DNA from: Pyrinomonadaceae bacterium
GTDB taxonomy: Bacteria; Acidobacteriota; Blastocatellia; Pyrinomonadales; Pyrinomonadaceae
Length of the DNA stretch: 64,000 bases
Direction: 5' to 3'
NCBI GenBank assembly: GCA_036263975.1
Contig: DATARW010000039.1
Coordinates: 30,669-94,668, forward strand
The position numbers and the translations under genes were made by a program. Every line of letters starts with the position of its first letter. The first letter of the stretch is position 1. The notes below the pieces were generated by a model that did not search any database, was not told the origin of the DNA, and saw only the letters and a program-made list of their open reading frames with translations. Positions 4,629 through 64,000 of this stretch are shown in pieces.

Positions 4629-7600
4629 ATGGTCTGCCTTAAATCATTCGCGCGAATTTTTTCGGCCCCGCGAGGACGCGTCGGGGCGACGTTGTTGCGG
4701 CTGGCGATGTTGTTGGCCTGCGCGCTGTCGGCGGGCGGCGCTGCGCGAGCGCAGCAGTACGGCCCGGATATGTTTGCAGGCATGCGCTGGCGTCTGATCG
4801 GGCCGCACCGCGCCGGGCGCGTGACGGCAGTGGCAGGCATTCCGGGCCGCCCCGCCGTCTACTACATGGCGACGCCGGGCGGCGGCGTGTGGAAGACGAC
4901 CGACGGCGGGCTGGTGTGGAAGCCGATCTTCGACGACGCGCGCGTGGCCTCAATCGGCGCGCTGGCGCTCGCGCCGTCGAACCCTGAAATCGTCTACGTC
5001 GGGACGGGCGAGCAGACAGAAGGCGACGGCGTTTACAAGTCCACGGACGGCGGCGCGACGTGGACGAACGTCGGCCTCCGAGAGACGCACTACATCACCT
5101 CGATCATCGTTGACCCGCGCGACCCGAACGTCGTCATCGTCGGAGCCTTCGGCGACCAGACTCCGTCTCAGGCGCACGGCGTCTTCAAGACGACCGACGG
5201 CGGCAAGAGTTGGAAGCAGACTCTCTTCCCCGGCGACCGAACCAGCATCGCGGACATGTGTGCCGCCCCCGGCGACAGCCGCGCTCTGTACGCCGCGACG
5301 TGGCCCCTCCGGTTCGCTCCCGGCGAACGACAGGAGGACTCGCAGATATTCAAGTCAACGGACGAGGGCGAGACGTGGCATCAACTGAGCGGCGCGGGCC
5401 TGCCGGAGAAGTCGCGCGGGCGCATCGGCGTCGTGGTCGCGCCGGGCGACAGCCGCGTCTACGCGATTATGAATCAGGGCTTCTTCCGCTCCGACGATGC
5501 GGGAGAGAGTTGGCAGCAGATCACGCGTGACCCGCGCGTCGTGGGCAGCGGGTATTTCAGCCGCGCGTTCGTTGACCCGAAGAACGGGGATGTCGTCTAC
5601 GTGATGCAGACTTCGATGTATCGCTCGACCGACGGCGGGAAAACCTTCGAGGCGTACAAGGGTGCGCCGAGCGGCGAGGACGAGCACGTCCTCTGGATAG
5701 CGCCCGACGACACGCGGCGAATGATCTTAGGCTCGGATCAGGGCGCGACCATCAGCCTCGACGGCGGCCAGACGTGGAGCCTCTGGTACAACCAGCCCAC
5801 GGGCCAGTTTTACCACGTCATCACGGACGACCAGTTCCCTTATTTCAACTACGCGTCGCAGCAGGACAGCGGCTCGGTCGCCGTGCCCTCGCGCAGCGAC
5901 TTCGGACAGATAACCTTCCGCGACTGGTTCTCGACGGGCGCGTTCGAGAGCGGCTACATCGCTCCCGACCCCTCAAACCCGAACCTCATTTACTCCATCG
6001 GCTGGTACGGCTCAGTCCTGCGTCTGGACAGGCAGACGGGGCAAGTCTCGACCGTCTTCATCCCCGGCCCGAAGTACCGCTACACTTGGGAGACGCCGCT
6101 CGTTTTTTCGCCGGGCGATAAAAAGAGTCTCTACGTCGGCATGCAGCACTTGCTCAAGAGTGACGACGGCGCGGCGACGTGGCGCGAGATCAGCCCCGAC
6201 CTGACGCAGACGAACGCCGCCGCGCGACAGACGGAGAAACCATTCGCGCAGCTCGCCCGCGCCGGCCACTCCGAGGAGAGAGAAGACGAGGAGGAGGGCG
6301 AGGGCGGGCAGCAGAGGTCGGAGCAGGGTGTGATTCTGTCAATCGCGCCGTCGGCGTTGCAGGCAGGGGAAATCTGGGTGGGCACGAGTTCGAGTCAGGT
6401 TCAGCTCACGCGCGACGGCGGCGCGACCTGGCGCAACGTCGCGCCGCCGGAGATGCCCGCCAACAGCCGCGTCACGCGCATCGAAGCCTCGCCCACCGAC
6501 GCCGACACGGCCTACGCCGTCGCGTCGGCACGCAACGACCTGCACCCGTATATCTTCCGCACGCGCGACGGCGGCAAGACTTGGCAGAAAATCACGACGG
6601 GCTTGCCCGAACGCGGCGTCGCGCATGTCGTGCGCGAAGACCCCGCACGCAAAGGTTTGGCCTACGCGGGCACGGACAACGGCGCTTACGTCTCTTTCGA
6701 CGACGGCGACCACTGGCAGCCCATCCAGCTCAACCTGCCGACCTCGCCCGTGCGCGACCTCGCCGTTCACGGCGGCGACCTCGTGGCCGCGACCTACGGG
6801 CGCGGACTCTGGATTCTGGACGACCTCTCGCCGCTCAGACAACTCGACGCGCAGGTGGCCGGCGAAAGCGTTCATCTGTTCCGCCCCTCGACCGCGCTCC
6901 GCGTGCGTTGGGACAACTGGCAGGAGACTCCGCTTTCGGCGGAGACCCCTGCGGGAGAGAACCCGCCGGAAGGAGCCGTCATTGACTACTATCTGAAGTC
7001 GCCCCCATCGCGGGAGATCACGCTGGAGATTCGCGACGGGCGCGGCAACGTCGTGCGGCATTATTCGAGCACGCCGCCGCCGAAGGACAGCACTCCGGGG
7101 AACGCACCCGACTTCTGGTTCGCGCCGCCGGAGGTGCTGCCCACGAAGACGGGCCTGAACCGCTTCGTGTGGAACCTCCGGCTGCCAGACCCTTCCACGC
7201 TGCCTTATAGCTTTTACGGCAGGCGCATTGACTACATCGAATACACGCTCCCAGATCACGCCGTCCCCGGACAGACGCCGCGCCGACAGCCGCCGGGGCC
7301 GCTCGCCGCGCCGGGCAGTTACGAAGTGGTTCTCAGCGTCGGGGGCAAGACTTACCGCCAGCCGCTCGTCGTCCGTCCAGACCCGCGTCTGCGCGCGTCG
7401 CAGGCAGACCTCGACGCGCAGCTCGACCTCGCGCAGAAGATCAGCGACATGATGGCGGCGAGCTACAACTCCTACAACGAAGTGGCGACTTTGCGCGCGG
7501 CCCTCTCCGAGAGGCTGAAGAGCCTTTCGGGAAATCCGCAGGCGGTAGACGCGACCGCCGCCGCCGCGGCGCTGGCGAAGGAACTCGAAGAGATCGCCGA

Positions 7601-7871
7601 GGGGACGAGCGCGCCCCCCGCCCCCGGCTTCGGCTCCGTCAACCGCGACATGTCGCGGCTCATAACGATGGTCGAGAGCGGCGACATGCGTCCGGCTGAG
7701 ACGGCTCTGAGCGCCGCCGGGGAGTCCTGCGAGTCGCTCCGCAAGAGCATGGCGCGCTGGGCGAAGGTCAACGCCGAGAGCTTGCCTGCTCTGAATAAGC
7801 TTCTGAGGAAATACAATCTCGCGCCGCTGCCCGCGTCAACTCCCGCGGCGGACGCGCGGTGCGGCAACTAG
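4629..7871 (+). CDS. Secreted BNR/Asp-box repeat protein (sortilin/VPS10-like beta-propeller)
   Basis: At least 10 Asp-box repeats (STDGGATW, TTDGGKSW, STDEGETW, SDDAGESW, STDGGKTF, SLDGGQTW, SDDGAATW, TRDGGATW, TRDGGKTW). Signal peptide present. ATG 4629 has AGAGG 8 nt upstream; the track start 4620 is GTG. Confidence 0.85.
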   Translation: MVCLKSFARIFSAPRGRVGATLLRLAMLLACALSAGGAARAQQYGPDMFAGMRWRLIGPHRAGRVTAVAGIPGRPAVYYMATPGGGVWKTTDGGLVWKPIFDDARVASIGALALAPSNPEIVYVGTGEQTEGDGVYKSTDGGATWTNVGLRETHYITSIIVDPRDPNVVIVGAFGDQTPSQAHGVFKTTDGGKSWKQTLFPGDRTSIADMCAAPGDSRALYAATWPLRFAPGERQEDSQIFKSTDEGETWHQLSGAGLPEKSRGRIGVVVAPGDSRVYAIMNQGFFRSDDAGESWQQITRDPRVVGSGYFSRAFVDPKNGDVVYVMQTSMYRSTDGGKTFEAYKGAPSGEDEHVLWIAPDDTRRMILGSDQGATISLDGGQTWSLWYNQPTGQFYHVITDDQFPYFNYASQQDSGSVAVPSRSDFGQITFRDWFSTGAFESGYIAPDPSNPNLIYSIGWYGSVLRLDRQTGQVSTVFIPGPKYRYTWETPLVFSPGDKKSLYVGMQHLLKSDDGAATWREISPDLTQTNAAARQTEKPFAQLARAGHSEEREDEEEGEGGQQRSEQGVILSIAPSALQAGEIWVGTSSSQVQLTRDGGATWRNVAPPEMPANSRVTRIEASPTDADTAYAVASARNDLHPYIFRTRDGGKTWQKITTGLPERGVAHVVREDPARKGLAYAGTDNGAYVSFDDGDHWQPIQLNLPTSPVRDLAVHGGDLVAATYGRGLWILDDLSPLRQLDAQVAGESVHLFRPSTALRVRWDNWQETPLSAETPAGENPPEGAVIDYYLKSPPSREITLEIRDGRGNVVRHYSSTPPPKDSTPGNAPDFWFAPPEVLPTKTGLNRFVWNLRLPDPSTLPYSFYGRRIDYIEYTLPDHAVPGQTPRRQPPGPLAAPGSYEVVLSVGGKTYRQPLVVRPDPRLRASQADLDAQLDLAQKISDMMAASYNSYNEVATLRAALSERLKSLSGNPQAVDATAAAAALAKELEEIAEGTSAPPAPGFGSVNRDMSRLITMVESGDMRPAETALSAAGESCESLRKSMARWAKVNAESLPALNKLLRKYNLAPLPASTPAADARCGN

Positions 7872-8074
7872 CTCGGAAGAAGCCGGGCCGAGCTTCGCCT
7901 ATTTTATTCAGGAATCCTGCATGAACCGCGCATGAATGAGTATAAACGACGATTTATGCGCCCTTGCTGAGAACGGGCGAAGCTCCGCCGTGTTGACGCA
8001 AGCGATGCGCGGCGGGCGCGTCCCGCAGTTGTTTCCGGTCACAGGCAAGTGACGATTGAGAAGGAGCTGCAATA

Positions 8075-10756
8075 GTGACCAGCGAGGAAGACAGGCTGCG
8101 GGAGTCGCGCCAGCGCACGGCGCACTGGAATCGCTGGGGGCCGTACCTCGCAGAGCGCGCGTGGGGGACGGTGCGCGAGGACTACTCTGCCGAAGGCGAC
8201 GCGTGGGACTACTTCCCGCACGACCACGCGCGCTCGCGCGCCTACCGCTGGAACGAGGACGGACTGGCGGGCATCTGCGACCGACACCAGCAAATCTGTT
8301 TCGCGCTCGCCGTGTGGAACGGGCGCGATTCGATACTCAAGGAGAGACTCTTCGGGCTGACGGGCAAAGAAGGCAACCACGGCGAGGACGTGAAGGAGTA
8401 TTACTTCTACCTCGACTCGACGCCGACGCACTCCTACATGAAGTACCTCTACAAGTACCCGCAAAGCGAGTTCCCTTACGCGCGGCTTTTGGAGGAGAAT
8501 CGTCGGCGCGGCAAGCTCGACCCGGAGTTCGAGCTTCTGGACACGGGCGTCTTTGAAGAGGATCGCTACTTCGACGTGACGGTCGAGTACGCGAAGGCCG
8601 ACCCGGAGGACATACTAGTTAAGATCAGCGTCGCCAACCGCGGCCCCGAAGCGGCGACCGTTCACCTCCTGCCGCACCTCTGGTTCCGCAACACGTGGTC
8701 TTGGAGCGGCGACACCGTGCGCCCGCAGTTGCGCCGCGTCGAAGGGCTGAGGACGAAGGGGCGCGGCGCGGGGTCTGCGCCCGCGAGCGCGTCGGTCGTC
8801 GAGGTCGCACACGACGTTTACGGCGAACGCTACCTCTACTGCGAAGGCGAGCCGGAGTTGCTCTTCACCGAGAACGACACGAATACTCAAAGACTTTACG
8901 GCGCGGCTAACGGCGGTCACGTCAAGGACGGCATCAACGACTACGTCGTCAACGGCGAGCGGGGCGCGGTGAATCCCGCGCAGGCGGGGACGAAGGCCGC
9001 GGCGCGCTACGTGCTGACCCTCGCGCCCGGCGGCGAGGCGGTCGTGCGCCTGCGCTTCGCCGAGGAGCCGCCGTCGAGCGTTGACGTGTCCTTCGGTGAA
9101 GACTTCGAGCGCACGTTCGAGGCGCGGCGTCTTGAGGCTGACGAGTTCTACGAGACGGTCATCCCTCGGCACCTGAGCGAAGACGCGAAGGGAGTCATGC
9201 GGCAGTCGCTGGCGGGCCTGCTCTGGTCGAAGCAGTTCTACCACTACGTCGTCAAGCAGTGGCTCGACGGCGACCCGGCGATGCCGCCGCCGCCGCCCGA
9301 ACGAAGACGCGGGCGCAACTGCGAATGGAAGCACCTCTACAACTCGGACGTGATCTCGATGCCGGACAAGTGGGAGTATCCCTGGTACGCCGCCTGGGAC
9401 TTGGCCTTCCACTGCGTCGCGCTCTCCATCGTGGACCCGGACTTCGCCAAAGAGCAGTTGATCCTGTTGCTGCGCGAGTGGTACATGCACCCGAACGGGC
9501 AGCTCCCGGCCTACGAGTGGAACTTCTCGGACGTGAACCCGCCCGTCCACGCGTGGGCGGCGCTGAGGGTTTACCGAATCGAGAGGAAGCGCAGGGGCGG
9601 CGCGGGCGACCGCGCGTTTTTGGAGCGCGTCTTCCACAAGCTGATGCTGAACTTCACGTGGTGGGTCAACCGCAAGGACGCCGAGGGCAACAACATCTTC
9701 GAGGGCGGGTTCCTCGGACTAGACAACATCGGCGTCTTCGACCGCAACAAGCCGCTCCCGAACGGAGGCCATCTGGAACAGTCGGACGGCACGAGCTGGA
9801 TGGCGATGTATACTTTGAACCTGCTCGCCATTGCGATGGAACTCGCCAGAGAAGACCCGACCTACGAGGATGTGGCCTCGAAATTCTGGGAGCACTTCAT
9901 CTACATCGCCGACGCGATGAACAACGTCGGCCCCGACAACTACTCGCTCTGGGACGACGAAGACGGCTTCTACTACGACGTGCTGCACGCGCAGGACGGC
10001 ACGCACCTCCCCATCCGCGTGCGCTCGATGGTCGGGCTGATCCCTCTGTTCGCCGTCGAGATTCTCGACTCTGATGTCGTTGACCGGCTGCCCGGCTTCA
10101 AGAAGCGCATGGAGTGGTTCATCGAGAACCGGCCCGACCTGACGCGCAACGTCGCCTCCATGCACGTGCTCGGCATGGGCGAGCGTCGTCTCTTCGCCGT
10201 CGCCGATCAGGAGAAGCTGACGCGCGTGCTCCGCTTCATGCTCGACGAGCGCGAGTTCCTCTCGCCCTACGGCGTGCGCGCGCTCTCGCGCTACCACCTT
10301 GAGCACCCCTACGTGTTGAATCTCGGCGGCGAGGAGAACCGCGTTGACTACGAGCCGGCGGAGTCAACGACGGGAATGTTCGGCGGCAACTCCAACTGGC
10401 GCGGCCCCGTCTGGTTCCCCGCCAACTACCTCATCATCGAGTCGCTGCAAAAGTTCCACTACTACTTCGGCGACGACTTCCGCGTCGAGTGCCCCACGGG
10501 GTCGGGCCGGATGTTGACTCTGTGGGAGGTGGCGGCGGAGTTGTCGCGCCGTCTGTCGCGCATCTTCCTGCGCGACGAAGGGGGGCGCAGGCCCGTCTTC
10601 GGCGGGGCGGAAAAGTTCCAGACGGACGAGCACTGGCGCGACCACCTTCTCTTCTACGAATACTTCCACGGCGACGAAGGCGCGGGCCTCGGCGCGTCGC
10701 ACCAGACGGGATGGACGGGTCTCGTCGCCAAGCTGCTCCAGCAGAGCGGGGAATGA
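8075..10756 (+). CDS. GH63-like (MGH1-like) glucosidase
   Basis: 893-aa ORF. GTG start with AAGGAG 8 nt upstream. The N-terminal [39 protein letters not shown] and the (alpha/alpha)6-type C-terminal half resemble GH63-family glucosidases. Confidence 0.75.
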
Positions 10757-58324: not shown

Positions 58325-59489
58325 ATTTGAAATCGTTGACAACCCTGACCTCCACGTTATTTAATGAATTAGTCGCCGCCCTTCCGCGGCACCGATCTTT
58401 CAGGAGCGATTGCACACGATAATGGCAAACCCGCCGCGAGGCGGGGGCGCAAAGCCGTGAGTCTCCGGGACGGCAACGAGTTTTTTCTGCCCTTGGAGAT
58501 CGTCTGGTTGCCGAAGAGTAGTCAGCATCCGCCACTCTGCATAATCCTCCCTTCGGACTGACCACGTCACCTCCACGCCCCGGCTAACGAGCGCAGCAAC
58601 GCGGCAACGGAACGCGATACGCAATCTCTCATCGGACTTCCCGGCCACAGACTTCCGACCGGTCGAACAGTCAGACGCGCAGGTCTTTGAAACTAAGAGT
58701 GCAGCCGCCAGCAGAGTGCGCGGCGGGAGTGCTGCGGCGCTCGTCCGGCTACCCTTCCCGTTCCGCCTCGGAATTAAAGACAGCCCTTTCCGCCACCGTG
58801 GCCGAAAGGCCGGCTAGGCTATAGGGCCCATGTCGTACGACGAGCAGGCAACGATTCCCCGCAGAGTCATGTCGGACAGGTGCGTAGCGCTAATTCTTGC
58901 CTCCCGAGCGACTGGCTGAAAAAGGATATGATTTTAACGAAATCAGCAAGAATTAGGCGTCTACTAAGGTGGTTACGGCAAGGTTGATGATTTCGACCAT
59001 GGGCGTCGGGGCATCAGTGCGAAGCCCTTGGTCGCGGTGCCCCGTACGCGCCCGGCGACCGGAAATGGCGGAAGCCGCGGCGGCATAAGATTTGTTCCTG
59101 AACCGAGGCGTCCCGGCTAGGGGCGCATTATTGGCGGTTCTTGGCTCTTTTCACACAACGCTGCGTAAATTTCCTCTGTGGGGGAATGAGGCAGCCGTCA
59201 CTATTCAGGTCACGGGTGTGTTAAACCTTGGTTGACAAGGTAAACCGTCACCCGCGCTCCCGAATAGCTTTACCTGAGGCGGGCAGGGTTCTCGCAAATG
59301 AGAGCTTGCGCGAACACGGCGATAAGTATAGACTGCGCTTTCGCGGTCCGGTCAGGCTCATCCAAGATGCGATCACACTTCGTGACCGTCTCGAACCTTA
59401 CGTTTTTCCGCCTCTTACGCGGCGGCCCTTTCAGTGCTTCTCGGCTTCACCCTTAGATTAAGCGACCGCCGTAGCGTGGGGAGGCGAAA
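58325..59489. other. 1.16-kb ORF-free segment rich in tetraloop-capped GC stems (structured RNA or decayed DNA)
   Basis: No credible ORF. Stems include CCCGCC-GCGA-GGCGGG (58430-58445), GGCC-GAAA-GGCC (58800-58811), nested GCAGC/CGCC...GGCG/GCTGC (58701-58735) and the palindrome CGACCGGTCG (58656-58665). Confidence 0.3.
58336..58363 (+). promoter_or_regulatory. Sigma-70-like promoter pointing into the ORF-free region
   Basis: TTGACA (58336-58341), 16-nt spacer, TATTTA (58358-58363). Confidence 0.3.
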
Positions 59490-60074
59490 ATGGATCTTCA
59501 GAAACTGACAAAAAACTACCAGATTTTAAAAGTTGTCACTCATCTTTCTGAAGAGGCGCGACGGGTGATGGACGAGGCTCCCGCGTATTATGTGGAGCGT
59601 GGCAGGTTCAGGCTCATATACGTAGAACCTAAAGATCTTGATCGTGTGACAGGAGAGCTGGGTATTTACGGGGCGCGCGGGTTCGTCTTGGCCGATTACC
59701 TGCTGACCGACCTTATTTATAATGGTACGAAGGTAGGTTTTTCCGTCGTTGATGTTGAACTCGCGAATAACAGAATGTTCAGGACTCTGACGAGGACACT
59801 TATCGGCAGCGGCAGATGGGCGGAACTGCGCGAGTTACTCGAAGGGGCAAAGGAGCCCATAACGGCGGTCGAACTCGAGTACGAGGGGTTCAAACTAAAG
59901 CTGTACGGCTCGGGTATAATAAGTGTTAATGGTCCCGCAAGGGAGTTTGAATTTAGGATTAAAGAAATTCTGGAGCGAGTTACCGACTGCCTTTCGGAAT
60001 CACTCGAAGGCGTCGAATCGGGCCACGCCTTAGCGGTATCTGCTGCCAATATGAGCGAAGCAGCAGTCCGCTGA
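59490..60074 (+). CDS. Hypothetical protein (194 aa, lower G+C, no family recognised)
   Basis: GGAGG RBS 6 nt upstream. AT-rich third codon positions, unlike the core genes. FKLKLYGSGIISVNGPAREFEF is faintly TBP-fold-like, but this is only a weak impression. Confidence 0.6.
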   Translation: MDLQKLTKNYQILKVVTHLSEEARRVMDEAPAYYVERGRFRLIYVEPKDLDRVTGELGIYGARGFVLADYLLTDLIYNGTKVGFSVVDVELANNRMFRTLTRTLIGSGRWAELRELLEGAKEPITAVELEYEGFKLKLYGSGIISVNGPAREFEFRIKEILERVTDCLSESLEGVESGHALAVSAANMSEAAVR

Positions 60075-60380
60075 CTGCGCGCGATTAATTCTGCTCGTCA
60101 GATTTACGACGAGTGGGCGGGACATCCGGAAGAGTCTTAGGACACGGCATATTGGGAAGTGTCCTGCCCAACGCCATCCGGCGCAATTAAATATTTTACT
60201 CCTTCATCTATACCTTTCGTCATCTTCTTAGGCACCGAAGAGGTTAGACCGAGAGGAGTTTCCCTCTCGCTAATACTAAACTCGACCGAGTGATTGTCGG
60301 ATCCGTATCAGAAGGGATCCGGCGATCATCCTTTATTTATGAGGGAGGCATCGTAGCCGTCTCCTCCGGGGCCTCACCTG

Positions 60381-62732
60381 ATGATTTCGCAACTCAAAGA
60401 ATTTTTCACATTAAAGAACTTACTCGGCAACAGCATCATCCCCCTGCTCGCCTTCCTGACCCTAGGATACATCCAGAGGAATGTTTACGACTGGACTAAG
60501 CTGAACAATGCCGGGTATGAGCGAAGCATTGAAATCGGCGGCTACCTTATAATCAACTTTCTACTCTATTCAGTAAGCAGGCCGCTTTTCTGGCTGCGCC
60601 CCCAACTCAAGGTTAAGGTTTATAAAGAAGGCTCGTCCCAGGAACAGCCGGAGACCTCACACGTGTTCGACTTCGCCCACAGAAAGCCGGGCGCCGACAT
60701 CAACAAGACGATGGCCGACATTAACATAGAGTTGGAATTCGTCCCCAACTTCTTAATCAGGCGGCGCGTACAAAAAAAGCGGCACCAGGACTTAGGCATA
60801 AAATTGCTGTGGAGCCCTGACAATCTGTTTTCGTGCGAGAGTCGTCATGCGGGAGACAAAATATTCAGTAAGGTGCTTGATAACGGAATCTACCTTTTCC
60901 CGTTCGGGAAGATGGAGTATTCAAACTTCAGCTTGTATTCATTCCGTTTCGCGCTGGGCACGACCGAGGTGGTCGAGCGGCTGAAGTTAAAGCCGAGGCA
61001 TTTAAACTGGAAGTCCCGACTACTTTTCGGGCTGATCAGCGAGACGGAATTTTTGTTCGACGTCAGAAACTCGGAGCCTCGTATCACCTCACCGGCCACA
61101 GAAGAACGGGCGTCCTCGCCACAAAGCGCCGGCGCTTCGACAGAAGACGGGTCGTCACCGCTGACCGTGCCCGCCCCGAGCACCGGGCGGCACCGACGCG
61201 TTCCGGGTTTAGCGAGCTTTGGAGCCGCTTGGCCGCGGTTAAGCGAGCATAAGGTGCTGAGCTCTGCCGTGACCACGGTGTTGTTCATCGCCCTTCTTTT
61301 TTCTCTCTATTATCTCCGGGGCGGTGAACCTGCCGTTAAGCGGATTAACTCCCTCGCGGTGCTACCTTTCACTTACGAGAAAGCTAATGCCGCGGGGATC
61401 GATGAGTCCGAATACCTGCCGCGGGGGATTCCAGGCAGCATCATCGAAGGCCTATCCAAGGTGCAGGCTTTTAAGATTGCCCGTCTCAACTCGGTCATTC
61501 GTTACAACGGGACAGCCGACCCGCAAAGGGTCGGACAGGAGCTTAATGTACGAGCCGTGATGGTCGGCAAGATAGTTCAGATGGGGGGCCACCATTATCA
61601 GGTCATTACTGACTTGTGGGACACTCAGAGCCGAAACCGCATCGGGGGAGAAACCATAGATTATACGTCTTCAGACCTCCACATCATTCCGGCCAAGATC
61701 GCGCAAGAGATCATCGAGAAACTACAACTCGGCCTGACGCCGGATGAACAAAAAGAGGTGAATGAGACCTTCACGAATAATGCCGAAGCTTTCATGCTTT
61801 ACCTGAAGGGGCGCACCTTCTGGGACAAGAGGGGTGAGGATAATTTAAAGAAGGCCAGTGAGTATTTTAAACAGGCGATAGATAAAGATCAGGACTACGC
61901 CCTCGCATATGCTGGACTGGCGGACTGTAACATCCTGCTCGGATATTACTCGTACCTGAAACCTAAGGATAGCTTTCCGCTGGCGGAAGAGGCCGCGCAA
62001 CACGCGATAAAACTCGACCCGGATCTCGCAGAGGCTCACACGTCGCTCGCTTATGTAACCGGTTTTTATAAATGGGACTGGGGCGGGGCCGACGCGGAGT
62101 TCAATAAGGCCATTAAGCTGGACCCCAATTACGCCACGGCTCACCACTGGTATGCGTTGTTCCTGGCGAGGAGGGGGCAGCCGCAGGCCCACGACCAGAT
62201 CAACACTGCCTTGGACCTTGACCAAAACTCTCTCATCATCAACAGGAGCCTCGGCCTTTTATACTATTATGAAGGCAAATATTCGGACGCCATACAGCAG
62301 TTCCAGAAGACGATAGACATAGACCCTAACTATTCGCAGGCCTACGTCTTGCAGGGGCGGGCTTACGCACTGTCAGGAAACATCGATGAGGCGATTAATT
62401 CAATCACCAAAGCACAGTCCATTGCCCCGGAAGATCCGAGCATCCTGCCGTACCTCGGCTGGGCGTATGCCCTGTCTGGCAACGTAAGAGAGGCCAAAAA
62501 AATACGCGACCAACTCAGGCAAATAGAGGACCGGAGTTACATTTCACCGTTCGATGAGGCGGTGCTATACGTAGGTCTTAAAGACTATCGGGAGGCATTT
62601 AAATTGCTCGACAAGGCATACGACGAGCAGTCCGATAAATTAGTCTCACTCAAAGTAGACCCTATCTTTAATGACCTGCGCACCAATGCTAACTATGCCA
62701 AGCTGCTCAGAGGTATGAATCTTGAGCCGTAA
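60381..62732 (+). CDS. Membrane protein: unknown N-terminal 2-TM + beta-rich domain - P/S linker - TM - TolB_N-like module - TPR repeats
   Basis: SLAVLPFTYE...LPRGIPGSIIEGLSK is the TolB-N-like motif seen in TPR signalling proteins. At least 6 TPR units follow (AEAFMLYLKGR..., ALAYAGLADC..., AEAHTSLAY..., ATAHHWYAL..., SQAYVLQGRAY...). Confidence 0.75.
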   Translation: MISQLKEFFTLKNLLGNSIIPLLAFLTLGYIQRNVYDWTKLNNAGYERSIEIGGYLIINFLLYSVSRPLFWLRPQLKVKVYKEGSSQEQPETSHVFDFAHRKPGADINKTMADINIELEFVPNFLIRRRVQKKRHQDLGIKLLWSPDNLFSCESRHAGDKIFSKVLDNGIYLFPFGKMEYSNFSLYSFRFALGTTEVVERLKLKPRHLNWKSRLLFGLISETEFLFDVRNSEPRITSPATEERASSPQSAGASTEDGSSPLTVPAPSTGRHRRVPGLASFGAAWPRLSEHKVLSSAVTTVLFIALLFSLYYLRGGEPAVKRINSLAVLPFTYEKANAAGIDESEYLPRGIPGSIIEGLSKVQAFKIARLNSVIRYNGTADPQRVGQELNVRAVMVGKIVQMGGHHYQVITDLWDTQSRNRIGGETIDYTSSDLHIIPAKIAQEIIEKLQLGLTPDEQKEVNETFTNNAEAFMLYLKGRTFWDKRGEDNLKKASEYFKQAIDKDQDYALAYAGLADCNILLGYYSYLKPKDSFPLAEEAAQHAIKLDPDLAEAHTSLAYVTGFYKWDWGGADAEFNKAIKLDPNYATAHHWYALFLARRGQPQAHDQINTALDLDQNSLIINRSLGLLYYYEGKYSDAIQQFQKTIDIDPNYSQAYVLQGRAYALSGNIDEAINSITKAQSIAPEDPSILPYLGWAYALSGNVREAKKIRDQLRQIEDRSYISPFDEAVLYVGLKDYREAFKLLDKAYDEQSDKLVSLKVDPIFNDLRTNANYAKLLRGMNLEP

Positions 62733-62744
62733 TTATCTTTAACC

Positions 62745-62962
62745 GCTGATGTCTGGACACATTTAGGAAGTTGTTTGTTTACCGCGTTTACTGGCGCTTC
62801 TAGCAAACCAAATTTGCAGTGTCAAGCGTGCAGCCAAAACCTGTTTTGCTCGACTTTTCAAGCCTGACCTTGCTGAAGTCGTTAAGCGCCCAATTTCTGG
62901 CCGAGCCAAAATCATGTTAACTGCTGCAATTACGTGACTTAAAAATGTGTCCGGACATCAGC
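62745..62962. repeat. MITE-like unit: 20-bp terminal inverted repeats (19/20 match) enclosing 178 bp of AT-richer DNA
   Basis: GCTGATGTCTGGACACATTT (62745-62764) versus AAATGTGTCCGGACATCAGC (62943-62962). Confidence 0.75.
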
Positions 62963-63435
62963 TCGAGGAGTTGAGACACGAGATCGCCGAGTTGACGGTG
63001 GCGGCGAAGCACGAAACCACTCGAAAAAGTATTCTGAAGCTCGGCGGGATGCTGGGTACTTTCAGGGCATCGTTCGCAATGGCCGTCAAGACTCAGGCGA
63101 GTAGCGTGCTTCCTATGGTGGGGGCCGCCGGCATGGGGGCAGCCGCGGCGGGGCTACTCGCCCTTTGGAAACAGGCCGCGGAGCGTGAACAGAGTATGGC
63201 GGCGAATCCGTACTTCATCCTCTGGAAACTGGGCGTGTCCCGACCGTCCGAGGTCAGGAGAACCTCGAAGGTGAGCCTTGTGAAGCCGCCGAAGCTGCCT
63301 CCCGGACACTTTAAGCTGAACGCCGCACATCATTGGCTGTGCCCGCCGACAGCCGGGGTGAATTTCCTAGCCGTAAGAAAAAGTGAGCTTCGTTCTTCAA
63401 CTCGATCTCATCTTGAGGTGCGAAATCCGTCATGA
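62947..63435 (+). CDS. Small protein with two predicted TM helices (start uncertain), translationally coupled to the cyclase
   Basis: Hydrophobic segments ILKLGGMLGTFRASFAMAV and VLPMVGAAGMGAAAAGLLALW. The stop TGA 63433-63435 overlaps the downstream ATG 63432-63434. The GTG start lies inside the right inverted repeat; ATG 63049 is an alternative. Confidence 0.5.
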   Translation: MSGHQLEELRHEIAELTVAAKHETTRKSILKLGGMLGTFRASFAMAVKTQASSVLPMVGAAGMGAAAAGLLALWKQAAEREQSMAANPYFILWKLGVSRPSEVRRTSKVSLVKPPKLPPGHFKLNAAHHWLCPPTAGVNFLAVRKSELRSSTRSHLEVRNPS

Positions 63436-63983
63436 CGCAGGGCGCGCAGGACTTGGTAGTGGCCATCTTCGACGTGCTCGGCTTCGAGGATCGGATCAGG
63501 AGGTTCTCCCTCGAAGAGGTTCACGGCCAGTACAAGGAGTTGCTGGCGATAGCCACCTCGAAGGGCAGCCACGCCTTCTTCGACGCGCGCCCCGCCGGCG
63601 GCGGGACGATGGTCCCGTTCTTCGGCTTCATCGAGATCGAGCAGGACTACTTCAGCGACACGATCCTGCTTTGGACGCGCTTCAGCCCGCCGACGCTCGG
63701 CCCGTTCCTCCACGTCTGTTGCAGCCTCATGTGCGAAGCGCTGCGGGCGGGACTCCCCCTGCGCGGCGCGCTGGCGTTGGGTGATGCCATCATGGACAAG
63801 TCCGCGCGGACGTACCTCGGGGAGCCGCTCGTGGAGGCGGCCAGGCTGGAGAAGGCGCAGCAGTGGGTCGGCCTCTCCTTCGGCCGCTCATTCACTTCCA
63901 GGCGAGGCGTCCCTTTTAACGCGGAGCTGGTGAGGCCCTACTCCAAGCACCGCAAGCCCGGCTCCTCCGACTTGGTCGCGTAA
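63432..63983 (+). CDS. Stand-alone minimal class III nucleotidyl cyclase-like protein (183 aa)
   Basis: VAIFDVLGFEDRI (first metal-Asp strand, FxDxxGF), DYFSDTILLW (second Asp), LRGALALGDAIMD and YLGEPLVEAARLEKAQQWVGLSF (xGxxVNxAARLE-type helix). No sensor or TM domain. Confidence 0.7.
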   Translation: MTQGAQDLVVAIFDVLGFEDRIRRFSLEEVHGQYKELLAIATSKGSHAFFDARPAGGGTMVPFFGFIEIEQDYFSDTILLWTRFSPPTLGPFLHVCCSLMCEALRAGLPLRGALALGDAIMDKSARTYLGEPLVEAARLEKAQQWVGLSFGRSFTSRRGVPFNAELVRPYSKHRKPGSSDLVA

Positions 63984-64000
63984 TTAGTCGTTGACTGGCC

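Follow-up and report, generated by a model that had tools for sequence, protein, structure and literature searches.

The far end of a 64,000-nucleotide stretch of Pyrinomonadaceae DNA, called the window here in its whole length, carries two open reading frames (ORFs) on the forward strand. According to the ORF listing, the first encodes 162 amino acids (aa) at 62947-63435 (+) and begins with GTG, and the second encodes 183 aa at 63432-63983 (+) and begins with ATG. The product of the second is 100% identical to VHU19_06595, a hypothetical protein of a Pyrinomonadaceae (Acidobacteriota) metagenome-assembled genome (MAG) at NCBI. An initial annotation read the pair as a minimal class III nucleotidyl cyclase translationally coupled to a small two-transmembrane (2-TM) protein; both ORFs and the ATGA overlap that it reported between them are present in the sequence. 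Our results suggest that the locus is likely to be a recently inactivated copy of a two-gene accessory cassette. The features on which this reading is built are as follows.

62745-62962, no strand: inverted-repeat element of 218 bp with 20-nt terminal inverted repeats at 62745-62764 and 62943-62962
62947-63435, + strand: chimeric ORF of 162 aa, the 5′-truncated remnant of a gene of about 400-420 codons with a 3′ read-through extension
62962-63381, + strand: genuine partner-homologous part, with the end of a coiled coil, two hydrophobic segments, NPYFILWKLG and HWLCPP
63031-63087 and 63103-63165, + strand: Ala/Gly-rich hydrophobic segments, from hydropathy
63331-63348, + strand: invariant C-terminal HWLCPP motif, from the partner alignment
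63382-63435, + strand: 17-codon extension and TGA stop, a former intergenic spacer, the ancestral stop being lost
63432-63983, + strand: gene of predicted cyclase fold, first 183 of 244 codons, covering profile positions 3-182 of 248
63471-63473 (D14), 63657-63659 (D76), 63762-63764 (R111), 63834-63836 (E135), 63843-63845 (R138), 63849-63851 (E140) and 63954-63956 (K175), + strand: candidate active-site codons, from conservation
63981-63983, + strand: premature TAA at codon 184, which is GAG (Glu) in the closest homologue
63984-64000, + strand: start of the cut-off 3′ part, LVVDWP..., which has 60 codons in all and ends 166 nt past the window

The protein search with the 183-aa ORF gave 59 homologues, none of which is annotated by Pfam, and the complete ones are mostly 240-250 aa long. 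In the alignment, these homologues run on past the end of the window protein with E-LVVDWPRxWR and about 60 further residues, and the TAA of the window copy is aligned with Glu in all full-length homologues. A longer public contig (L001) carries the window DNA, with the cyclase-like ORF at 10001-10552, and there the frame after the TAA continues as LVVDWPRAWRKEYK... for 60 codons beyond the stop, encoding a conserved C-terminal helical domain which nearly all homologues possess. The region 10553-10735 of this contig translates to LVVDWPRAWRKEYKTSAVPALERLSLRGDVPEYYRCTIEFVRHSDENPEWYRAYQKEDAP and then reaches a normal stop, with no further lesion before it. The closest relative is protein P0002 of locus L033, which is 90% identical. 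The initial annotation had seen in this ORF the catalytic pattern and nothing else; its 183-aa size is due to the in-frame TAA, and a conserved C-terminal domain follows. The last beta-strand and the entire C-terminal appendage (residues 188-244) are lost with the TAA. As this strand and this domain are gone, the cyclase-like copy in the window is most likely non-functional.

The upstream ORF is damaged as well. The initial search with the 162-aa ORF found only two relatives, one of them in L032, and the related gene in L033 reaches much further upstream. When the longer L032 sequence was used for the search, 54 proteins of 296-465 aa were obtained, most of them 390-430 aa long. This partner family has the motifs FDFWARGNYTRR, DAGWGY and PAELIG, and the C-terminal H-W-L-(C)-P-P is invariant in the alignment. 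The 162-aa ORF covers only positions 258-399 of the 400-position partner profile, and a profile search for the N-terminal part of the partner elsewhere in the 64-kb window gave no match. Of its codons, 5 come from an inverted-repeat arm, about 140 from the C-terminal third of the partner and 17 from read-through. The first five, VSGHQ, belong to the right arm of the inverted repeat. Homology to the partner sets in at the inner end of this right arm, with 62962 as its start in the protein and about 62972 in the nucleotide comparison. The homologous part shows 60-65% identity in tblastn to residues 276-416 of P0210 and P0216.

At the other end of the remnant, the partner genes of L033 and L032 end with ...VKK followed by TAA or TGA, and in L033 a TAA stop after the partner gene is followed by a 56-nt spacer before the next ATG. 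The nucleotide alignment of the window and L033 shows small indels at the 3′ end of the partner remnant. These indels removed the ancestral stop, so that the 162-aa ORF reads 17 codons into the ATGA, and the apparent coupling is a by-product of decay. The translational coupling proposed earlier is thus replaced by a secondary overlap. The same applies to the small protein with two strongly hydrophobic helices: what was described is a third of a protein of about 400-420 aa, and its segments are only moderately hydrophobic. Averaged over 19 residues, their highest Kyte-Doolittle values are 1.25 and 1.74, compared with family means of 1.58 and 1.12 for the partner. The AlphaFold model built for the partner family has pLDDT values of 83-97 in the N-terminal domain and below 40 in the hydrophobic region; with this model, Foldseek found nothing in the PDB below E=0.28. 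Both window ORFs were scanned against Pfam, NCBIfam and PADLOC without a match even at E≤10, and neither the upstream ORF nor its full-length relatives had a Pfam or PADLOC match beyond noise.

Two relatives of the remnant also carry changes. The L033 partner gene is without 19 codons (KQAAEREQSMAANPYFILW) which are kept in the window (63169-63225) and in L032 and which lie between two LWK repeats; it is probably a slippage deletion that removed the conserved NPYFILW motif. The L032 partner gene, on a contig of 1.1 kb, has an in-frame TAA at 607-609 between the N-terminal domain and the hydrophobic region. More stops precede its ATG, and this gene, too, is probably in decay. As an in-frame TAA was found in L032 too, reassignment of this stop codon was considered, and it was ruled out by the long genes of the window, which read normally under table 11.

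The comparison with L033 dates the lesions relative to the divergence of the copies. Between about 62972 and the point where the cyclase-like gene naturally ends, the window is 83% identical to L033 in nucleotides, and the flanks of the two are unrelated. Both genes have therefore travelled as one unit, since the identity is confined to the gene pair. The synonymous divergence (dS) between the two is about 0.45-0.7. Among the 57 comparable codons after the TAA, 13 differ synonymously and 1 non-synonymously, with a ratio of non-synonymous to synonymous substitution rates (dN/dS) of 0.016; this ratio is 0.12 for codons 1-183 and about 0.075 for the partner remnant. Near-absence of non-synonymous change after the TAA at a dS of about 0.45 indicates that the stop is very recent compared with the divergence of the copies. 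In the same way, the partner remnant is still constrained, and therefore the partner lesion is recent too.

The strong constraint after the TAA, however, would also fit a gene that is still translated in full, and this has to be set against a recent inactivation. The cyclase-like gene would then be intact at 244 aa, and the TAA would be an assembly or sequencing error or would be read through; the lack of any other lesion before the normal stop also speaks for this explanation. We consider it quite improbable. The TAA is common to the NCBI MAG, the JGI contig Ga0376686_0000616 and the Logan contig of SRR11836029, although these three assemblies are possibly not independent, and TAA is the least leaky stop codon in bacteria. 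The other genes of the window, such as a 783-aa gene with TPR repeats, are normal under table 11, and the adjoining gene is damaged too, which fits the decay of a whole cassette. Moreover, independent deletions in another lineage point to repeated loss of the family. Scans of the region for sigma-70 promoters, terminators and Rfam families were uninformative; no promoter model is available for Acidobacteriota.

Taken together, the data are best accommodated by an inactivated cassette whose parts may be described as follows. Gene 1 normally encodes about 400-420 aa, its fold being unassigned: the N-terminal domain is large and soluble, a helical hairpin of weak hydrophobicity follows, and the HWLCPP tail is at the end. 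In the window, approximately its first 270 codons are missing, with the break at the 218-bp inverted-repeat element, and through the loss of its stop the ORF runs into the start codon of gene 2. Gene 2 normally encodes about 244 aa, of which residues 5-187 form the predicted class III cyclase fold and residues 188-244 a conserved four-helix appendage.

Copies of the cyclase-like gene are damaged elsewhere, too. In one Blastocatellia locus (L013 2006-11112, also L060), four paralogues of the family stand in tandem, at a density of up to four within 10 kb. Listed with it are L039 5001-5714 and L046 3837-4467; one contig is intact and two have deletions of 82 nt and 173 nt, and the contigs with deletions are otherwise 100% identical to the DNA of the intact copy. 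This suggests polymorphic gene inactivation in a Blastocatellia population, and from the sequences compared, loss of the cyclase-like family seems to be common.

The fold of the cyclase-like protein was predicted by AlphaFold with full-length P0002 as the target and 41 homologues, and the model had a mean pLDDT of 90.7 and a pTM of 0.88. Foldseek against the PDB gave 49 best matches, all of which are class III adenylyl or guanylyl cyclases, with E-values of 1.7e-5 to 9.8e-3 (29 at or below 1e-3), a probability of 0.98-1.00 and target-normalised TM-scores of 0.21-0.64 over the 49. They include Rv1264, the photoactivated OaPAC, Cya2, CyaC, Ma1120, Rv1900c, Rv1625c and mammalian cyclases of both the soluble and the membrane type. 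Neither GGDEF nor Cas10 nor a polymerase palm was found among these 49 significant PDB matches. Against viral structures, Foldseek with the same model returned nothing convincing, with weak GGDEF-type matches only. The model and the structural search therefore agree on the fold of the class III cyclase homology domain (CHD).

The family is large: when 1.84 billion cluster representatives were searched with its profile, 4269 matched at E≤1e-3, and 206 of these at E≤1e-30. Many of the best profile matches are extended, by 120-190 residues at the N-terminus or by a long stretch at the C-terminus; of ten such proteins, only one had a recognisable domain, TPR. The family has been seen so far only in MAGs and metagenomes, and its distribution is patchy over at least 10 phyla, among them Acidobacteriota, Nitrospirota, Pseudomonadota, Actinomycetota, Bacteroidota, Planctomycetota and Verrucomicrobiota; Desulfobacterota-type deltaproteobacteria, Bipolaricaulota and Hydrogenedentota also carry it. 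A tblastn search against phage genomes gave no match, and one against complete plasmids gave a single match in the Bacillus wiedmannii plasmid p536 (NZ_CP036072.1), WP_215559167.1 (L120 5428-6744). This protein is annotated as 'DUF262 domain-containing protein', and its C-terminal 250 residues contain FLDILGF, ISDS, IPLRGA and LVEAYKKE. From this architecture, Firmicutes have a GmrSD/ParB-like domain fused to a cyclase-like domain.

The motifs noticed by the initial annotation are present, in the form FDVLGF, FSDT, LPLRGALALG and GEPLVEAARLE, and in the 206 sequences of the family the highest conservation falls on them. In the predicted secondary structure, F13-D14-x-x-G17-F18 stands at the end of beta-1 (strand 7-15), S75-D76 in the hairpin turn between strands 70-74 and 77-83, R111-G112....G117 on the next long strand, and G130-x-P-L-V-E135-A-A-R138-L-E140 on the following helix. 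They were compared with a manually written class III consensus, which was validated by its matches to adenylyl cyclases (E=1e-71). Between the two aspartates, the family has an additional beta-hairpin of about 18 residues. The conservation was 182/184 for D14, 200/202 for D76, 201/202 for R111, 202/202 for G112, 196/199 for E140 and 182/189 for K175, thus 96% or more for each, and in the C-terminal helical domain D188, W189, R191, W193, R194, Y217, Y218, F224 and S228 are conserved. The near-invariance of D14, D76, R111, G112, E140 and K175 is the pattern expected of an active two-metal nucleotide-processing site. Absence of the metal-binding aspartates had been named as a point that would speak against a cyclase; D14 and D76 are conserved and the placement of the motifs is canonical. 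An intact enzyme may bind a nucleoside triphosphate (NTP) with two metal ions held by D14 and D76, with R111 and K175 contacting the phosphates, and would release a nucleotide product, cyclic or otherwise.

Several observations weigh against the assignment as a class III cyclase. The position of the two aspartates was judged by motif position and predicted secondary structure, not by 3-D superposition. Pfam, including Guanylate_cyc (PF00211), gave no match to the window protein at E≤10 or to 41 family members at E≤1. A PDB sequence search with the single sequence and with profiles of 41 or 108 sequences gave only noise. Comparison by hhalign with five CHD sequences (the manually written consensus and four real AC8 and AC9 domains) gave non-significant probabilities of 1% and 11%, with only the beta-1 motif aligned. 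When G-x-x-V-N-L-A-S-R-L-E is aligned with G130-E-P-L-V134-E135-A-A-R138-L-E140, the position of the transition-state Asn of helix alpha-4 is occupied by V134, so that the N-x-x-x-R pair is incomplete, and R138 is Arg in 129/199 and Lys in 23/199 sequences (Arg or Lys in 76%). No purine-specifying pair, Lys/Asp for ATP or Glu/Cys or Glu/Ser for GTP, is recognisable in the alignment of 206 sequences. Four positions ahead of D76, Ala or Asp prevails and a conserved Lys or Glu never occurs, and Y128 (Tyr or Phe) stands at the place of the second base-specifying residue, both as judged from the motifs; E135 is Glu or Asp in 190/199.

As sequence profiles gave no significant link to cyclases, the cyclase assignment rests on predicted structure and motif order. 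The earlier proposal of a class III cyclase thus holds for the fold and the order of the motifs, and sequence profiles give it no backing. According to its model, the protein is a very divergent branch of the class III cyclase fold for which Pfam, NCBIfam and PADLOC offer no model. Because the Asn is lost, R138 is variable and no base-specifying pair is recognisable, the chemistry may differ from the synthesis of cyclic nucleoside monophosphates (cNMPs).

These substitutions bring in another explanation, in which the protein has a palm-type cyclase fold but is no cNMP cyclase: it would make another nucleotide product (a linear or cyclic oligonucleotide, or a nucleotidylated substrate) or would be an NTP-binding sensor or toxin that acts alone. 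Besides the missing canonical Asn, the partly conserved Arg and the lack of recognisable base-specifying residues, it would account for the missing PF00211 profile link, for the fact that neither a cNMP-binding receptor nor a conserved partner was found, and for the finding that most family copies are solitary genes. Fusions to DUF262-like and TPR regions and the long N- or C-terminal extensions without a Pfam match point in the same direction. On the other hand, all significant structural matches are class III cyclases, and the metal aspartates and the strand arginine are near invariant, as for the cyclase-type two-metal NTP chemistry. On balance, we regard this explanation as somewhat unlikely.

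For the question of partners, about 110 loci with family members were gathered from genomes and metagenomes. An all-against-all comparison of the neighbouring ORFs of about 85 loci revealed no partner common to the family. Only three kinds of neighbour recurred: tyrosine recombinases (about 7 independent loci), further copies of the family itself, and a few partners each confined to one sub-clade. Among window relatives of 56-80% identity, the directly upstream gene on the same strand varies. A 2-TM protein overlaps the start codon in L003, L041 and L042 and ends 4 nt before it in L036, a different 2-TM protein is upstream in L040, and L005 has a membrane protein with zinc ribbons. A TIR_2 protein lies directly upstream in L035 and L044 (56% identity), an AbiJ-like protein in L043, and an integrase in L034, where a ThsB-like TIR gene and a PDC-M50A gene follow downstream. 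L003 is located between type IV secretion genes and an integrase in an integrative element.

The partner of the window type adjoins a family member only in L033. The initial annotation had asked whether the upstream ORF is conserved beside homologous cyclases, and only the nearest relative shows this arrangement. A full-length partner is present in 7 loci; in one of them (L116) a family member lies 2.2 kb downstream of it, and in the other 6 there is none within 5-6 kb. In three independent loci, a gene convergent to the family member (L014 6757-9096 (-), L056 2517-4337 (-) and L037 3826-4362 (-)) encodes a large protein that begins with TPR repeats and whose C-terminal part is related to the partner's N-terminal domain. 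These neighbours make some link between the two families possible, and the pair is not obligate.

The L116 cluster (Ga0467045_0000008) is of another composition. At 7579-8304 it has a different cyclase-like ORF of 241 aa (VFADINGHS ... NDSLMAGF ... GDPLILAARLL) without a Pfam match, directly downstream of which lies a 539-aa family member at 8427-10046. The full-length gene of the partner type is 2.2 kb further upstream, and all are on one strand. The cluster also has DUF5677, pEK499_p136 and PDDEXK genes.

The neighbour data also bear on the module originally proposed, in which the 183-aa cyclase would work as it stands, make a cNMP such as cCMP or cUMP and thereby activate the coupled 2-TM effector for abortive infection. 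The cyclase fold and the conserved acidic residues are real in the sense of the model and the alignment, the ATGA overlap exists, the remnant keeps its hydrophobic segments and conserved tail, and a membrane protein is encoded upstream on the same strand in L003, L036, L040, L093 and L018. Nevertheless, such membrane proteins occur in only about 9 of about 70 non-redundant loci and are mutually unrelated, so that an upstream membrane protein as a rule of the family was dropped. A share of this size is not above the usual share of membrane proteins in bacterial genomes. Furthermore, the 183-aa product is without the last strand and the domain with D188, W189, R191, R194, Y218 and F224, the upstream ORF is about a third of its parent and begins in an inverted-repeat arm, the overlap is absent in L033, and no PycC or cNMP-binding match was found. 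A working two-gene pair is therefore, in our view, very improbable, and the 'minimal cyclase with a coupled 2-TM effector' owes its appearance to two recent lesions and to the window edge and should not count as a new architecture.

When 149 non-redundant neighbours were scanned with Pfam, Phage_integrase (4), TIR_2 (3) and DNA methylases (2) came up most often, and among the families found once were GmrSD_N, AAA_15, IS21 IstB, resolvase, RHS, phage portal and addiction-module antidote. The cNMP_binding family is not in the 25 listed of the 80 families among these neighbours, and the TIR_2 neighbours in L035 and L044 have no cNMP_binding domain. No CRP-like domain was found among the neighbour ORFs, in what was a weak test with an approximate query sequence. 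Housekeeping neighbours also occur, including aldehyde dehydrogenase, FtsH, MutL and a P-type ATPase. As some neighbours are of this kind, the defence and mobile context is no more than suggestive. The defence-island setting for which the initial annotation proposed a check is thus borne out in part, by integrase, TIR, ThsB and AbiJ genes, and is weakened by the housekeeping genes nearby; nor are the homologues restricted to housekeeping surroundings, as the contexts are mixed. The family may be a cargo of mobile elements and defence-type islands, where it would sometimes stand by TIR or membrane proteins.

The metabolic genes among the neighbours, and the abundance of class III cyclases in soil bacteria, could also mean that the protein is an ordinary housekeeping signalling cyclase of Acidobacteriota without any link to genetic conflict. 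The patchy distribution over at least 10 phyla is hard to reconcile with it, and the same is true for the variable contexts with integrases, TIR, ThsB, AbiJ, type IV secretion, IS21 and GmrSD genes, for the tandem paralogues and recurrent pseudogenes, and for a cassette which is shared with L033 while the flanks differ. We find a housekeeping cyclase very improbable.

The surroundings of the inactivated cassette in the window agree with an accessory location. A block of lower G+C at about 59230-63030 (L001 5800-9600) has 0.46-0.55, compared with 0.60-0.68 on both sides, and the ORF pair has 0.60-0.66; the lower-G+C orphan block described before the pair is hereby confirmed by the G+C profile. 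It holds a 194-aa orphan ORF and the 783-aa TPR protein, which has one hydrophobic segment. Just upstream of the block, a few kb from the cassette, a DDE transposase fragment and a Schlafen/AlbA_2 gene are located. Because of the transposase fragment, the Schlafen/AlbA_2 gene and the low-G+C block, this end of the window looks like acquired DNA.

The inverted-repeat element is positioned between the TPR gene and the partner remnant. Its arms are 95% complementary, and shuffled sequence gave 0 such matches; the arm pattern is found at only these two sites in the window, with 0 chance matches expected. The element is single-copy in the window and has a predicted hairpin energy of -78.7 kcal/mol, and no obvious target-site duplication and no Rfam match were found at it. 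A miniature inverted-repeat transposable element (MITE) had been suspected upstream of the pair. An inverted-repeat element is indeed found directly upstream, and the MITE label is unproven since a second copy of the 218-bp element was not seen.

The initial annotation had also left room for a further effector past position 64,000. Inspection of the longer contig did not support this: what follows is a gene for a staphylococcal-nuclease-type protein of 258 aa, which begins at a distance of 391 nt from the premature TAA codon and has no match in the other fetched loci. Its product has one N-terminal hydrophobic segment, possibly a signal peptide. As neither this gene nor the pP_pnuc_1 gene of L005 recurs beside other family members, both were dropped as effectors.

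The greater interest lies in the family rather than in this locus. The intact members could be divergent class III-fold immune nucleotide-signal synthases with their own C-terminal regulatory domain, an altered catalytic helix and interchangeable upstream effectors, such as TIR, 2-TM and approximately 415-aa HWLCPP proteins without classical cNMP-binding domains. We put this forward tentatively and judge it unlikely. The signal-synthase reading is circumstantial, because it draws on catalytic-type residues, defence-type contexts, TIR and membrane neighbours, paralogue arrays and frequent loss. If it is true, a new signal molecule, a new type of receptor, or both are implied. Sequence-based censuses begin from recognisable cNMP cyclases (bioRxiv 10.64898/2026.08.12.744502); if enzymatically active, the present family would extend the conflict-related nucleotide-signal synthases past the reach of such censuses. 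It merits a biochemical test.

Among known proteins, the class III CHD (PF00211; Rv1264 1Y10, CyaC 1WC1, Cya2 2W01, Ma1120 4WP9) has the same predicted fold and provides the best structural matches. Both share the order of a beta-1 Asp in F-D-x-x-G-F, an Asp in a hairpin turn, an R...G strand and a G-x-x-[VL]-x-x-A-[AS]-R-L-E helix. In contrast to the CHD, our family has no sequence-profile match, carries the extra hairpin of approximately 18 residues between the aspartates, has Val at the Asn position with Glu/Asp one residue on and no recognisable base-specifying pair, and ends in a C-terminal four-helix domain with a D-W-P-R-x-W-R motif.

Pycsar anti-phage systems were reportedly described by Tal et al. 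in 2021. Pycsar and Pucsar consist of a PycC or PucC cyclase and a CNBD-TIR or 3TM pJV1-spdB3 effector (PMC11224242; bioRxiv 10.64898/2026.08.12.744502), and multi-cyclase loci were reported for Pycsar-1 (bioRxiv 10.64898/2026.08.12.744502). Like them, the family has a stand-alone protein of predicted class III fold in accessory DNA, sometimes beside TIR or membrane proteins, and some of its loci have several cyclase-like genes, as in Pycsar-1. Unlike them, it has no conserved partner, and the candidate partner, where present, is encoded upstream. The PycC models of PADLOC-DB v2 matched neither the window protein nor the 41 family members, and the neighbouring TIR and membrane proteins had no match to the Pycsar effector models. 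The Pycsar-like system proposed at first is thus not upheld, for want of a PycC match, a cNMP-binding partner and a conserved pair. By the criteria applied to these sequences, the family is not a member of Pycsar/Pucsar.

Panoptes comprises a minimal Cas10-like palm cyclase, mCpol, and a membrane effector (PMC12657230; PMC13577387). The signature of our family is of the class III type, Y-F-S-D-T, unlike the GGDD/GGDEF of such palms, and it has no Pfam match. What the two have in common is the idea of a very small stand-alone palm nucleotide synthase paired with a small membrane protein. By this analogy, the family may act as a small nucleotide-signal synthase whose product is read by a neighbouring effector.

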